Of a stretch of DNA of 23,408 nucleotides, positions 3,112-9,760 are shown in pieces (the stretch's first letter is position 1; each line of letters begins with the position of its first letter). The position numbers and the translations under genes are program-made. Source of the stretch: Promethearchaeia archaeon (GTDB lineage: Archaea; Asgardarchaeota; Lokiarchaeia; Sigyniarchaeales; SOKP01); the NCBI GenBank assembly GCA_029856155.1, contig JAHQWL010000071.1, positions 1-23,408 on the forward strand, read 5' to 3'. Below the pieces are notes generated by a model. The model saw only the letters and a program-made list of their open reading frames with translations, was not told where the DNA came from and searched no databases.

Positions 3112-4845
3112 TTATTTCTGAATTGCCTCTAACAACTTTTCAATCTCAGCTTGGATGACTTCGGGCTTTTTCGCCGTTTGACCGGCTATAGCTAATTGGC
3201 GCTCTATAATAGGTCTGTGAAGTGTGTTCATCGCACAGAAGGGTACTTCGCGAACTTTGCTAGGATCCTCCGGATCGATGACTCCATAATGAACAAGACA
3301 TCTGCATACTCTATCGAGGTCGAAATTGTAAGCATCTTGAAAATGCATCGATGACACCATTAGGTTGCGGTCGTTGAAGAATTTCCCCGCCGATTTTAAG
3401 TTTGGAGCCATTACTAACCGAGCGAATGCTTGATATGTTTTACTGGTAAGAATCTTTTCTGGACTTTTAATATATCGTGCTGCTCCAGCAAAGAAATATG
3501 CCTTCATAACTTGCCGATAACCTAAGCTAGTCATATCATCAACAAAATTTCCAATTTTGGAAGCTAGTTGCCCAAAATCGTCTAAGTTAATACCTTTCAA
3601 TAATCCAGTAGGTTTTGGGACTTCTTGTTTCTCTACCATATCCCAAACTTGATTAGCCCATCGAATCAATCCTTCCGCTTTAAAAAAGTTTTCGATAGGC
3701 TCCCACTCATCTTTTTCATTAATAACACATATCGTTGCAAATCCACAATCGCTATGGCTCGTCATGCTGAATGGTGGCATATCGTCAAACCAAGCTAGCA
3801 ATTTTGTAAACTTCGCTGTGAATGCAATTGGGTAAAACTTTTTTACTGAGCCATTTGTATACTTATTAATTGCTTCTTTTAGATCAGAAGTAGTGTATCT
3901 AATATCCATTAATTCTTCGAAGCTAATACGTCCTGTTAACGAGACGGGTTGGAAAATAAGGCCTGATACTACATCACAATTATTTTTTGCAAAATCTAAA
4001 ATTTTACCAATTTCATGGTCATTTACCCCTTTAGCGATTACTGGAACTAACATAACACCATAAAAACCAAGCTTTCGAGCATGTTCAATGACTCTCTGTT
4101 TAAGTGGCCATAAATTAACGCCTCTAATCTTTTTCCATACTTCAGGATTATCTGTGGCATCAAATTGGAGATATACTGCATCCATTCCAGCCTCCATACA
4201 TTCTTTCATAAATTCTATTGATTTACCAAATCGAACACCGTTAGTAGTAACCATGACTTCTGTAAAACCTAATTCATGTCCTTTACGAATTATTTTTGGT
4301 AGATCATCTCTTACTGTAGGTTCTCCTCCAGATAGCTGGAGTAAAACCGCAGAAATAGGTTTCATGGATCTAAAATGCTCCATAATTTGTACAAGTTGTT
4401 CGAAAGTTGGTTCAACAACATAACCTGCAGCACTTGCATTCGCAAAACAAATAGGACAAGCTAGATTACAGCGATTTGTGATATCTATTAAACATATATT
4501 TGGAGCGCTTTTATGATTAGTACATAAACCACAATCATATGGACATCCTTTATCTACTTCTTTAATTCCCGATGATACATATTCGGGTTTAGTAGAATTA
4601 TTTACAGTAGAACCAATTTCATTAGTAATATTTGATTGCCATTTATATTCTTCAGGATTAATTGATAATTTATCTTTGAAGTCTCCGTGATCTTTACAAT
4701 GTTTTCGCATCATAACCCAATTTGTTTCTGGATCTACGTAAATTTCAGCCGGAAGATGTTTCATACATTCTGGACAAATACTGGTAGTTGTTCGGATAAT
4801 CTCAACGTCATCCTTTTGATTAGTTTGAATCTCTAACTCTGTCAT
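3112..4845 (-). CDS. tes: Tetraether lipid synthase (Tes / GDGT-MAS, MJ0619 family radical SAM enzyme)
   Basis: N-terminal CPEC...C..HG metal site, CPYDCGLC..H auxiliary cluster motif, radical SAM CNLACPIC, GGEPT, FQPVS..GR, H.DCG, and C-terminal MHFQDAYNFD..RV.RC.VHY...VPFC..N. Confidence 0.88.
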   Translation of the reverse strand: MTELEIQTNQKDDVEIIRTTTSICPECMKHLPAEIYVDPETNWVMMRKHCKDHGDFKDKLSINPEEYKWQSNITNEIGSTVNNSTKPEYVSSGIKEVDKGCPYDCGLCTNHKSAPNICLIDITNRCNLACPICFANASAAGYVVEPTFEQLVQIMEHFRSMKPISAVLLQLSGGEPTVRDDLPKIIRKGHELGFTEVMVTTNGVRFGKSIEFMKECMEAGMDAVYLQFDATDNPEVWKKIRGVNLWPLKQRVIEHARKLGFYGVMLVPVIAKGVNDHEIGKILDFAKNNCDVVSGLIFQPVSLTGRISFEELMDIRYTTSDLKEAINKYTNGSVKKFYPIAFTAKFTKLLAWFDDMPPFSMTSHSDCGFATICVINEKDEWEPIENFFKAEGLIRWANQVWDMVEKQEVPKPTGLLKGINLDDFGQLASKIGNFVDDMTSLGYRQVMKAYFFAGAARYIKSPEKILTSKTYQAFARLVMAPNLKSAGKFFNDRNLMVSSMHFQDAYNFDLDRVCRCLVHYGVIDPEDPSKVREVPFCAMNTLHRPIIERQLAIAGQTAKKPEVIQAEIEKLLEAIQK

Positions 4846-5189
4846 AAGAATCTATACTCTGTTGTATTTTGTTTAAAATAGTATTTTAATAAATAGTTAT
4901 TCTATTAATTAAACTTTTAAATCATTTAAATCTTATAATAATCTCTATAGTATTATCGATATTATTAAAAAAGATTAAAAATCTTAATAAAATTGAAAAT
5001 TAAGTTTCATATTTTAATCTTTTTAAATGGAAAATATAACCATTAACTTTAAATTCTAAATTGCACAAAAAATTGGAAATTAATTATATTTTAATTCTTA
5101 ATTATCTTAAATTAATTCTAAAATTTCTTTAATTACTCCTTTTTAATGTATTTATTATTTATTAGGGAATAGATTTTTAAAAGAAAGGG

Positions 5190-5310
5190 TGACTCCTAGC
5201 CTACGAGACGCAAATAAGCGTCAAAAATAAAATAGGGGGAGGAGGGCGAAATCAGAGTGTAAGAATTTACACTACCAAAAGACAAAAATCCAGGGTGTAG
5301 GCAGGAGTCA
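5190..5310. ncRNA. Candidate structured non-coding RNA (~122 nt, closed multi-stem fold), family unknown
   Basis: GC-enriched island in a very AT-rich gap. Ends pair: TGACTCCT-A-GCCTAC (5190-5204) with GTAGGC-AGGAGTCA (5297-5310), 14 bp with one bulge. Internal hairpins GACGC-aaataa-GCGTC (5207-5222) and AGTGTAA-gaat-TTACACT (5256-5273). Confidence 0.6.
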
Positions 5311-5335
5311 TATTTTTAATTTTTTTTTATTTTTT
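5311..5335 (+). terminator. Oligo-T tract directly after the structured element (possible archaeal terminator)
   Basis: TATTTTTAATTTTTTTTTATTTTTT immediately 3' of the closing stem. Confidence 0.4.
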
Positions 5336-5973: not shown

Positions 5974-6180
5974 TTATAGTATAATTAATTGCTTGCATTT
6001 AATACATAATTTTCCTTCCAGTTTTGCTTTTTTTGCACATACCAAACAATAATTAGTTTTACAAGCGGGACAAGTGTATGTATCTCCTTGAATATCGCCC
6101 TTATGGAAAAGGCAAAAATTGTCCCCTATTTTAAAAGATGGAGGGAGTGCGGGTGGAGGTGGTGTTTTTTTATCTCTCAT
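5974..6180 (-). CDS. Small polyproline + RING/FYVE-like zinc-finger protein
   Basis: TPPPPALPP followed by C-x2-H-x10-C-x2-C-x4-C-x2-C-x10-C-x2-C (8 potential Zn ligands). Confidence 0.75.
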   Translation of the reverse strand: MRDKKTPPPPALPPSFKIGDNFCLFHKGDIQGDTYTCPACKTNYCLVCAKKAKLEGKLCIKCKQLIIL

Positions 6181-6266: not shown

Positions 6267-6728
6267 TTATATTAACGAGGGAACTTCTTCAATTAGAACA
6301 CTAATAACATTTGCTACAGACATAAATTTTTCTTTAATCATATCAAGAGTTAATTGTCCAGAGTCTACTATATCTCCAATTAAATAAGTCTCATAAAAAC
6401 ATTTTTCCATTTCATAACATAATCCCGTTGTGTGTAAGATTTCTTTGCTTAGGTTCAATTCATTTAATACATTAGATATTCCTTTTACGAGTTCTGGTGA
6501 AAATTCTTTTAGTTTTACGAGAATTTTCTTAATATTTTTATTTTTAGTCGGAAAACAGCTTATTTTAACAACATCTTCACGAGAAATGAAAATTAGTAAA
6601 TAATAGGGTGAATCTAATATTTCTTCTTTAATTTCAGTAGGAAATATAGGATTAGTATTCAATTCTTTATCGTTTACAATTAGCCCTATCGAAATTTTAT
6701 TTTTTTGAGTAGGATTATCTGTTTCCAT
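6267..6728 (-). CDS. Putative ACT-domain protein with AbrB-like N-terminus
   Basis: The C-terminal half has a beta-alpha-beta-beta-alpha-beta pattern (ILVKL...PELVKGISNVL...ILHTTGLC...FMSVANVISV). The N-terminal IFPTEIKEEI resembles the AbrB I.IP.EIR motif. ATG at 6728 is preferred over TTG at 6737. Confidence 0.55.
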   Translation of the reverse strand: METDNPTQKNKISIGLIVNDKELNTNPIFPTEIKEEILDSPYYLLIFISREDVVKISCFPTKNKNIKKILVKLKEFSPELVKGISNVLNELNLSKEILHTTGLCYEMEKCFYETYLIGDIVDSGQLTLDMIKEKFMSVANVISVLIEEVPSLI

Positions 6729-6997
6729 TATTATCAAAAACCTAAAGGTAATTAAAAGTTATATTTGAGTAAAGATATATAAAGTTTTTTTCTATTTATT
6801 TTTATTTTTTTACATTGTTTATATAGTTATGTTTAAGGTGTTTTATAATCCTCAAATATTCAACTAATAATCGCACTTATTATTTTTTTATATTTAAAAA
6901 TGGGGTATTACTAAGATATTATTTGTATTTTATATCCAAATCCAATTTTCTTTACATAAGATCTTTATAAATTAATTTTTTTAATCAAGCTATAATT

Positions 6998-7495
6998 ATG
7001 GGTTTTCAAAATAATTTTAGGGAAATTAGAAATAAATTTGGATTTGAACTTGATAAGTTTAATTCTCAAGAGTGTAGATTTCATGCCATATATTTCATAG
7101 ATTATGAAACTGGTGCTTTACTTGTTAGTAATAGATATACAGATAGTTTGAATTTTTTAAAGGATGATTTAATTAGTAGTTTTTTAAATGCAATAAATTT
7201 ATTTATTAATGAAATTAATGAAGGTTCTAATGAAGAACTTCAAGATATTAATTTTAAAGGTACAAGAATCTTATATGAAAGGGAAGGGCGTCTTTTAGCT
7301 ATAGCCATTACAAAAAAAACTAACTTACAAATGGAAAGAGGGATTCTCCGAGAGATAATGGAAGATTTCTATATCAGATTCAAAAATTTCATTGATAATT
7401 TTAACGGTGCAATAACGCCCTCAATTAGAGACTATAAAAAAAGATTAAAAAGTATGAATTTAAACTCACTATTCAAATTCAATATTCAGATTTAG
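6998..7495 (+). CDS. Stand-alone longin-domain protein (Asgard eukaryotic-signature type)
   Basis: AIYFID.ETG.LLVS..Y, DLISSFLNAI..F..EI, three short beta-strands (DINF..TRILYE...LLAIAIT), then helix ILREI...F..RF...I..FNG. Confidence 0.75.
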   Translation: MGFQNNFREIRNKFGFELDKFNSQECRFHAIYFIDYETGALLVSNRYTDSLNFLKDDLISSFLNAINLFINEINEGSNEELQDINFKGTRILYEREGRLLAIAITKKTNLQMERGILREIMEDFYIRFKNFIDNFNGAITPSIRDYKKRLKSMNLNSLFKFNIQI

Positions 7496-7506
7496 GATAA
7501 TTATGA

Positions 7507-8874
7507 TTATTCTTCTTGTTTGTCTTTTTTGATTTTTTCTACTTTTGATTCAAATTTTTTAACAATAGTTTTTGCTTCAGTTTTAATATTAATTCGGTGT
7601 GTATCAATTTCCCGTTGTTCTTCGATTTTATCCGCTTGTTTTTCAACAAGAGTAGAAATCTTTTCAGCAGGACCTTCCAAATCAGGATGTATCTCCTTTC
7701 GTTGAGCAAGACTTTCTTTCTGACGATCAATAATAAAAGCCTTTTCTCCTATGGATTTCTCAATTTTTTCACTAGCACCTTCTATATCTGCATGTATCTC
7801 TTTTCGTTGAGCAAGACTTTCTTTCTGACGATCAATAATAAAAGCCTTTTCTCCTATGGATTTCTCAATTTTTTCACTAGCACCTTCTATATCTGCATGT
7901 ATCTCTTTTCGTTGAGCAAGACTTTCTTTCTGACGATCAATAATAAAAGCCTTTTCTCCTATGGATTTCTCAATTTTTTCACTAGCACCTTCTATATCTG
8001 CATGTATCTCTTTTCGTTGAGCAAGACTTTCTTTCTGACGATCAATAATAAAAGCTTTTTCCCCTATAGATTTCTCAATTTTTTCACTAGCACCTTCAAT
8101 ATCTGGATTTATCTCAATACGCTTTTCATCAATTTCACGTTGCTTTTCTACACGAAACGCTTTCTCTCCAATAGTTTTTTTAATTTTCTCTGCTGTACTT
8201 TCTATATCTGGATGTAATTCCATAAGATGCTGATCTAGTTCACGTTGTTTTTCTACGCGAAATATTTTCTCTCCAATTGATTTTTCTATTTTCTCTGCTG
8301 TACTTTCTATATCTGGATGTAATTCCATAAGATGCTGATCTAGTTCACGTTGTTTTTCTACGCGAAACGCTTTCTCTCCAATGAATTTTTCTAATTTTTC
8401 ACTAGTACTCTCCAAATCTGGATGGATACCAACTCGTTGCTCATCTAATTCCTTTCGTTTTATTACGTGGAAAGCTTTCTCTCCAATAGATTTTTCAATT
8501 TTCTCTGCTGTACCTTCGATATCTGGATGTAATTCCATACGATACTCATCTAATTCACGTTGTTTTTCTATTCGAAACGCTTTCTCCCCTACAGAACTTT
8601 CTATTTTTTCTCTCGTTCCAACAATATCTGGTTTGAGGTCTTTTAATTGAGCTGTAGTTTCTTTTTGAATATTAATTCTGAATGCTTTCTCGTCTATCAA
8701 ATTTAATATATGTTCTTTTCCTTCTGTAAATGATTTTTTCCTTTCTTCTTCAATACTTTTTAAATAAGCTTCTCTTTCTTCTTTTTCTTTCTTATAGAGG
8801 TCATCAACAAGTTTCTTTTGTTTTTCTATCTCATCAAGAGATAAAGGTTTTTCATTTTCACCCAATATACTCAC
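7507..8874 (-). CDS. Highly charged protein built from tandem 35-aa repeats, function unknown
   Basis: 455 aa: 60-aa leader, 10 clear plus 1 degenerate 35-aa units, 10-aa tail. No TM segment or signal peptide. GTG start. Confidence 0.85.
   Translation of the reverse strand: MSILGENEKPLSLDEIEKQKKLVDDLYKKEKEEREAYLKSIEEERKKSFTEGKEHILNLIDEKAFRINIQKETTAQLKDLKPDIVGTREKIESSVGEKAFRIEKQRELDEYRMELHPDIEGTAEKIEKSIGEKAFHVIKRKELDEQRVGIHPDLESTSEKLEKFIGEKAFRVEKQRELDQHLMELHPDIESTAEKIEKSIGEKIFRVEKQRELDQHLMELHPDIESTAEKIKKTIGEKAFRVEKQREIDEKRIEINPDIEGASEKIEKSIGEKAFIIDRQKESLAQRKEIHADIEGASEKIEKSIGEKAFIIDRQKESLAQRKEIHADIEGASEKIEKSIGEKAFIIDRQKESLAQRKEIHADIEGASEKIEKSIGEKAFIIDRQKESLAQRKEIHPDLEGPAEKISTLVEKQADKIEEQREIDTHRINIKTEAKTIVKKFESKVEKIKKDKQEE
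7540..8694 (-). repeat. Intragenic tandem repeat, 105-bp period, ~11 units
   Basis: ttttcgttgagcaagactttc recurs at 7801, 7906 and 8011. Units 7-10 (7645-8064) are nearly identical, and units 4-5 are nearly identical to each other. Confidence 0.95.
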
Positions 8875-9010
8875 TTTTAAAAATTATCGAGATTTTTTAC
8901 ATATAATATCAAAATTCTTATTTAATAATTTTTATGTTTATTCTATAAATAAGTTTTAAACTAAAGGAATCAGAATATTTTTTAGTAAAAAATAGCAGAG
9001 TTTAAACTAA

Positions 9011-9760
9011 TTATTTTATAGGAATGGGCTCAAAAGAATCATCAGAAATGTGATCCATGAGACTTAGCATTGTTAATTTCATTGTAAGCATTTCCATAAC
9101 TTCCAATTCTAATTTCTTTGATTTTTCAGAATCTATTGATAAGTTATGTTTGGTAATTAAATTTCTAAATTCTTGTTTTAAATTTTTATACGACTCATCT
9201 TGGTTATCTAAACTTATATCTTGATTTTTTAACCAGGCATCAATTTCATTTTTGATATGGACATCTATACCATTACCTATATAATAAGCGACTTCAACTT
9301 CTTTTAGATCATCTAAATTATTAAGATAATCTTGATCCTGATACATAGGTTTAATTAAAAATCCGAGATTTATAATTAAAGGCTCTATTTGAAGTTTTTC
9401 TAACGAATCTACTAGAAATTCTAACACTTTATCTTTATAATTTAATTTAGAATAATTAATGTATTCTTGGACAAAATGCATAATTGAATTTTTTACTAAT
9501 AATTCTTCAAATTCAAAGATAGAATCGGGTTTAATTTCAAGAGTATTATTAATACAGTTGTATAATGAGTTATTAAAGGGTTTGTTATCTTTAAACATTG
9601 AAAATTTGTTTATGAAACTCAGAATTTCGCTAATAATTTCGAGCTTGTTCTCATCGGGCTCCGAGTTATAATATTGATTAATATTTCGTTCTAAATCGAA
9701 ATTCTCATCAGAAATTGATAAGAGTTGCTTTATTTCAGAATATAAAGAACTAAAATCCAC
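9011..9760 (-). CDS. Hypothetical acidic, helical protein
   Basis: 249-aa ORF with normal composition, GTG start and a TATA-like box about 25 nt upstream. No motif recognised. Confidence 0.8.
   Translation of the reverse strand: MDFSSLYSEIKQLLSISDENFDLERNINQYYNSEPDENKLEIISEILSFINKFSMFKDNKPFNNSLYNCINNTLEIKPDSIFEFEELLVKNSIMHFVQEYINYSKLNYKDKVLEFLVDSLEKLQIEPLIINLGFLIKPMYQDQDYLNNLDDLKEVEVAYYIGNGIDVHIKNEIDAWLKNQDISLDNQDESYKNLKQEFRNLITKHNLSIDSEKSKKLELEVMEMLTMKLTMLSLMDHISDDSFEPIPIK

Follow-up and report, generated by a model that had tools for sequence, protein, structure and literature searches.

A conserved helical repeat protein of Loki-type Asgard archaea and its probable origin from a small Asgard protein

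The repeat gene and its surroundings

The window, by which we mean the whole 23,408-nucleotide stretch of DNA that was analyzed, carries on its reverse strand a gene for a tandem-repeat protein, the parts and neighbors of which are collected in Table 1. This is a real and conserved, although unnamed, gene of Loki-type Asgard archaea; it is present as a single copy in its genome and is under purifying selection, with dN/dS of 0.09-0.23 for units 1-3. The frame is open over 455 codons (7507-8874, reverse strand), and the initial annotation placed the start at GTG 8874. That codon lies within a conserved GTGA word resembling a ribosome-binding site. Translation probably starts instead at TTG 8865: in 43 of 48 homologues the corresponding position is occupied by TTG, ATG, or GTG, and the GTGA word lies 5 nt upstream of this TTG. 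Further upstream, a conserved TATA/BRE-like block suggests that the gene has its own promoter.

Within the family of Lokiarchaeia to which the genome belongs, the neighbors of the gene are conserved: the 249-aa gene upstream and, downstream, the convergent longin-like gene, the 156-aa gene, and the Tes-like radical SAM gene. They differ in other families. A second Tes-like paralogue is found on contig C6. Between the Tes-like gene and a gene for a 130-aa membrane protein lies a non-coding block (5184-5327) that retains ~74-93% identity in 12 related loci; it returned no Rfam match at E 0.1 and is a candidate structured RNA or regulatory leader. A 68-aa open reading frame (5974-6180, reverse strand), 61-94% conserved in ten related loci, combines a polyproline stretch with a Cys/His-rich, zinc-finger-like pattern.

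Table 1. Features of the locus; residue (aa) numbers are counted from GTG 8874 and positions within a unit from its Pro
Feature	Position	Strand	Remarks
Whole repeat-protein gene	7507..8865	-	Probable start TTG at 8865; 452 aa
Conserved upstream block	8901..8933	-	A-run, then TTATTAAATA, then TATTAT; TATA/BRE-like
Head	8680..8865	-	One long predicted helix (AlphaFold pLDDT 78-88 over aa 11-60), the end of which carries the first I-xxx-I-x-E-K-A motif
Ten gap-free 35-aa / 105-bp units	7645..8694	-	aa 61-410; each a ~31-residue predicted helix plus an I-H-P-D hinge
Units 4-5	8170..8379	-	Unit 5 copied in place from unit 4
Units 7-9	7750..8064	-	Protein-identical; unit 8 copied in place from unit 7/9
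C-terminal capping helix	7510..7644	-	Degenerate last unit without Phe
249-aa gene	9011-9760	-	Syntenic in 12/14 loci; no Pfam match
Convergent gene	6998-7495	+	Weak longin-domain match (Fuz_longin_1, E 0.08-0.12); syntenic in 14/14 loci
156-aa gene	6267-6737	-	Syntenic in 14/14 loci; no Pfam match
Tes-like radical SAM gene	3112-4845	-	436 bits against an NCBIfam cut-off of 450

Units, their turnover, and the predicted fold

The protein was first described as 10-11 gap-free units of 35 aa rich in Glu, Lys, and Arg, and both observations stand. There are ten full units and a partial eleventh without the Phe; ten [G/D]EK[A/I]F motifs are spaced by exactly 35 aa (aa 61-376), TRF reports a 105-bp period with scores of 547-813, and the composition is 18.5% E, 15.2% K, 12.5% I, and 5.7% R. 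The statement that no catalytic or membrane domain is attached has to be divided: neither a membrane segment nor a signal peptide is visible in the sequence, but a head of 60 aa, which is the oldest and most widely conserved part of the protein, had been overlooked. Several homologues (at loci L081, L069, L067, and L071) carry an extra conserved motif, EKWL.Q.KK.RK, at the C terminus, which this gene lacks.

Pairs of units in the protein are identical at 13-35 of 35 residues. Over 454 distinct units, conservation is concentrated in a few positions (K17, 100%; I10, 99%; F19, 97%; I/V14, 95%; E16, 92%; A18, 89%; D2, 87%; P1, 81%) and the others drift; I10, E16, K17, and F19 are near-invariant in each unit. 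The first half of the unit presents a narrow hydrophobic stripe of Ile positions (3, 7, 10, 14, 18, and 21) with a periodicity of 3.6-3.67 residues and a hydrophobic moment of about 0.5, flanked by basic residues on one side and acidic residues on the other. As computed from the 454-unit profile, F19 is placed ~165 degrees away from this stripe, on the opposite face. Charged residues predominate in the second half and account for 45% of the whole unit, the net charge of which is near zero.

The array is subject to internal copying. Only 0-2 nucleotide differences are found among units 7-9 and 7 between units 4 and 5, and internal units are usually closer to units of the same genome than to those of distant genomes. 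In close relatives most positions remain in register, with positions 5 and 8 overwritten by copies of different units: position 5 holds unit-3-like or mosaic sequence, and position 8 is a copy of unit 6 in two of them. Such in-place conversion between units shows that they are interchangeable. It also bears on the suggestion that the length of the protein is set by its repeat number. Of 14 gap-free copies drawn without bias from the genus, 11 contain ten units, and the remaining three contain 7, 9, and 13; the count is 4-13 within the family, two- and three-unit forms exist, and the range across the order is 2-13. Some of these counts may be affected by assembly errors. The period is 35 aa in the gene's own family, 32, 37, or ~40 aa in other lineages, and 32-41 aa across the order. 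In-place overwriting can explain a stable count of ten without any selection on length, and ten units therefore need not mean a ruler, a proposal that finds no support in these data. We consider it scarcely credible that the protein is a true length ruler acting as a nebulin-like liner of Lokiactin.

An extended, non-compact helical repeat protein had been expected, and this is what the predictions return. The AlphaFold model of the full protein has a confident head helix followed by long helices broken at each H-P-D (pTM 0.19), and the head helix has a hydrophobic periodicity of 3.67 residues. Three units modeled with a 123-row alignment give helices at residues 3-33, 38-68, and 73-104 (pLDDT 70, pTM 0.25), that is, one helix of ~31 residues per unit and no compact fold. 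Covariation peaks at i+1, i+3, and i+4, as for helical neighbors, and the unit alignment contains no antiparallel diagonal or hairpin across the hinge and no long-range covariation. An antiparallel zigzag fold was rejected for want of such a signal, and the combination of one helix per unit with no hairpin across the hinge tells against PPR, a superhelix of stacked 35-aa helix-turn-helix hairpins, or any other solenoid, in line with the earlier view that this is not a PPR protein; nor is there a PPR Pfam match. For a repeat aligned at modest depth, a low pTM is also compatible with a bundle, or with an oligomer to which a monomer model would be blind. Shape matches are generic, consisting of long helices and coiled coils. 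Foldseek returned nothing at E 0.001 (a row for 8glv at E 1.1 is meaningless), VIA-align found generic long helices only (best Z 6.4, rmsd 7.8, 104 aligned), and the Atlas shape search gave generic rows that include an unnamed 248-aa Promethearchaeota cluster at TM 0.55.

Relatives and origin

The claim that the protein belongs to no known family withstood profile/HMM, structure, and Atlas searches: no entry in Pfam, NCBIfam, PHROG, PDB, or Atlas explains it, and the Atlas feature search gave no usable match. Matches to Pfam families (Sulphotransf, UBA_SIK3, and CAT_RBD) and to PHROG are treated as artefacts because they are summed from short stretches over the repeats and differ between members; the weak matches P0038, P0052, P0055, and P0058-P0060 represent repeat proteins of unrelated kinds. 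When the whole protein was used in a word-based search, no homologue was returned, although relatives exist. Profile matches occur in 109 of 134 genomes of the gene's own Lokiarchaeia family, in 1 of 14 of a second family, and in 2 of 4 of a third, and relatives come from genomes labeled Promethearchaeota. Neither the closed genomes of P. syntrophicum MK-D1 and Harpocratesius repetitus nor the other Asgard families searched yielded a member, although so short a helix might have changed too much to be detected. The protein belongs to the known class of extended helical repeat binders and has a traceable origin, and its family is undescribed in the literature searched.

That origin emerged from a phylum-wide search with a profile of the head plus first unit, built solely from repeat-bearing proteins. 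In two other families, with 5/5 and 6/6 genomes positive, it recovered stand-alone proteins of 65-67 aa (E 1e-7 to 1e-14); they are hypothetical proteins of Freyarchaeum deiterrae (e.g. WXG41426.1, Ca. Freyarchaeum deiterrae) and of Jordarchaeales. Weaker stand-alone proteins of 59-63 aa occur in Atabeyarchaeia and share just the first ~35 residues of the head. Scores are 47-49 bits for the Freya/Jord proteins and 23-26 bits for the weaker group (Atabeya, family f5), compared with shuffle maxima of ≤10. All these stand-alone proteins are true homologues of the head, those of Freya/Jord down to its terminal [LI]-E-x-H-[IV]-x-E-K-A motif; the latter end in the same I/L-xxx-I/V-x-E-K-A but without the Phe, which is also absent from the capping helix of the repeat protein. 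Unlike the repeat protein, none of the stand-alone forms (59-67 aa) has an array or a Phe19. Profile comparison aligns the end of the head with the unit at a probability of 87% (E 4e-6). Because the end motif is shared and aligns with the unit, we conclude that the array arose in Lokiarchaeia by repetition of the C-terminal helix of an older small Asgard protein, with the Phe and the Pro hinge acquired later. The later 40-aa units of Sigynarchaeota lack both. A resemblance between the head and the stathmin helix cap found no backing in Pfam and was discarded.

Candidate functions of the array

The reading that we favor, albeit tentatively and with slightly less than even confidence, is a multivalent binder: the protein would be a segmented helical rod in the cytoplasm that engages a repeated protein surface, and it may do so as a parallel dimer; its location, dimerization, and partner are all part of what is postulated. 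The differing gene neighbors of other families weigh against this reading. In essence, an ancestral Asgard helix of ~65 aa, represented by today's head, had its amphipathic C-terminal end duplicated in Lokiarchaeia, and each copy then acquired a Pro hinge together with a second half rich in charge. Every unit would present an Ile stripe with acidic and basic flanks, the invariant Lys17, and an outward Phe19. Interchangeable units of this kind would most likely dock successively on a filament or other multi-subunit assembly, possibly with pairing of two parallel chains through the Ile stripe, and the number of units would tune avidity and reach rather than fix a length. An extended polymer-binding or scaffold protein had been proposed at the outset; the extended helical form is supported and a role as multivalent binder or scaffold is plausible, whereas the length-setting function is not supported. 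With members that range from one module (65 aa) to thirteen, the family offers a ready series for the evolution of a multivalent helical binder.

The invariant residues could instead serve self-contacts. The protein might also be a self-assembling structural protein that needs no other partner, with right-handed coiled-coil rods or a meshwork formed when units pair along the Ile stripe. The 3.6-3.67 periodicity, the small residues beside the stripe, the opposite charges of its flanks, the high charge content with near-zero net charge, and the generic long-helix and coiled-coil shape matches are all in keeping with this. A generic coiled coil would not, however, require an invariant exposed K17 and F19 in every unit, the helix is interrupted by a Pro at intervals of 35 residues, and long-range covariation is absent; we regard self-assembly as unlikely, if still the strongest competitor of the multivalent binder.

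A more specific version of the multivalent-binder reading is a convergent, nebulin-like liner of Lokiactin in which each unit would contact a single actin subunit. Nebulin itself lines F-actin in a 1:1 ratio; its units are 31-38 aa long, with a helix that starts at a Pro and an SDxxYK motif, and their key positions are D3, P5, K11, S18, D19, Y22, K23, and K30 (10.1101/2021.10.06.463400). The present unit, 35 aa long (32-41 across the order) and helical from position 3 after P-D, lies within this length range and shares the Pro start. The initial annotation considered SDxxYK to be absent, which holds for the strict motif (0/454 units) but not for a degenerate [SG][DE]xx[FY][KR], found in 136/454; the degenerate nebulin-like pattern can be written P-D-I...[G/S]EKAF. 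With F19 set in register with Y22, G/S/A15 (81%), E/D16 (97%), and R20 (36%) are conservative matches, so that conservative matches exist at nebulin positions 18, 19, and 22 and, for a third of the units, at 23. There is no match to D3, P5, K11, or K30, and all eight positions together do no better than column shuffles (P 0.42). The pattern plus P-D does beat column shuffles (P 0.0004), a result that is suggestive only because the pattern was chosen after the fact.

The two proteins are alike in their ~35-aa period with tolerated variation, their helix from the Pro, their small-acidic-x-x-aromatic motif, and their lack of a globular core. They differ in that the repeat protein has no SDxxYK, no D3, K11, or K30, no HMM match, and no 7-unit super-repeat, and in that it has the invariant Lys17, the Ile stripe, and an independent origin from a small Asgard helix. 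The HMM of the nebulin family (PF00880; nebulin, nebulette, and LASP) has no match at the locus at E 10 and is not among the families listed in scans of other members. A relationship by descent with nebulin is therefore unsupported, most of the actin contacts having no counterpart; a faint likeness to β-thymosin fares no better, with no match to PF01290 in the genome at E 10 and, in the unit profile, no LKKT-type motif of the kind that follows the amphipathic helix in β-thymosin and WH2.

Geometry is more accommodating. The rise of Lokiactin is 27.9 Å (PMC9834061), hence 56 Å per step along one strand, a distance within the reach of a 31-residue helix and its hinge, but a compatible geometry does not demonstrate binding. 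Two close Lokiactins are encoded in the same genome as the repeat protein. Asgard actin regulation seems to be mainly profilin- and gelsolin-based (PMC13716822), and no side-binding stabilizer is named in the Lokiactin papers searched. Against a liner stand the eight-position result and the silent PF00880 model, the invariant K17, which has no nebulin counterpart, the absence of the Phe from ancestral forms and of both Phe and Pro from the later Sigynarchaeota units, the failure to find the gene in the closed MK-D1 and Harpocratesius genomes although nearly all Asgards have Lokiactin, and the variable count of 2-13. A nebulin-like liner is accordingly judged improbable, and the same low odds attach to its predicted history, namely independent evolution in Lokiarchaeia from the last helix of a small Asgard protein, of which the 65-aa proteins would be the monovalent precursor. 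Should the partner be Lokiactin, prokaryotes would have an analogue of nebulin in this protein; otherwise its interest is moderate, as a family of Asgard structural proteins not described before.

A coat on a lipid or storage-granule surface, comparable to apolipoproteins or perilipins, is a further prediction that we hold to be distinctly doubtful. Exchangeable apolipoproteins such as ApoA-IV likewise consist of Pro-punctuated amphipathic helices with 11/3 periodicity, and the hydrophobic moment of the first half of the unit would suit such a role; ApoA-IV is the best PDB sequence match, at a non-significant E 0.17, and one segment matched ApoLp-III at E 0.038. The neighborhood may point the same way, with a Tes-like lipid synthase gene near the repeat gene in its own family and, in Freyarchaeia, a small homologue that adjoins a Tes-like gene and an inositol-phosphate-synthase-like gene. 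The two Tes-like genes are, however, not clear orthologues (38% versus 39% to two paralogues), and the link is missing in four other lineages. Apolipoproteins are built of 22-mers, whereas the 35-mer has a narrow Ile face confined to half a unit, with one acidic and one basic flank, an asymmetry that class A lipid-binding helices do not have.

It is very unlikely, and already largely refuted, that a known repeat type has been misread. LEA proteins, GvpC, PPR solenoids, and subunit H of the A-ATPase are charged helical repeats of similar length, and the head has weak compositional matches to ATP synthase b/H models (E 0.003-0.07), but no such Pfam family appears among the matches of members and each unit is a single helix. 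An LEA protein, with its loosely conserved 11-mer repeats, is contradicted by the invariant columns and the dN/dS of 0.09-0.23, with no LEA Pfam family among the listed matches. GvpC also consists of helical tandem repeats, of 33 residues, which run along a protein lattice; its repeat HMM (PF01304) had no match at E 1, and GvpA and the assembly genes were not found in this genome or in 60 genomes of the family, in a search where no positive control gave a match. Subunit H/G of the A/V-ATPase was set aside since the small homologue has no match to the AhaH model at E 0.5 and since a separate H gene accompanies subunit E in Freya, Jord, and Atabeya genomes.

Two further observations concern other genes. 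In an A-ATPase-like cluster (L146; G000:C46:148-4856), subunit E is very divergent (E 2.6e-5) and one gene, of 103 aa, is missed by the AhaH model. The two close Lokiactin genes of this genome (L083:1474-2619 and L084:1495-2622) are 85% identical and are accompanied by three divergent actins; the first (L083) is ~100% identical at the protein level across genera of the family.
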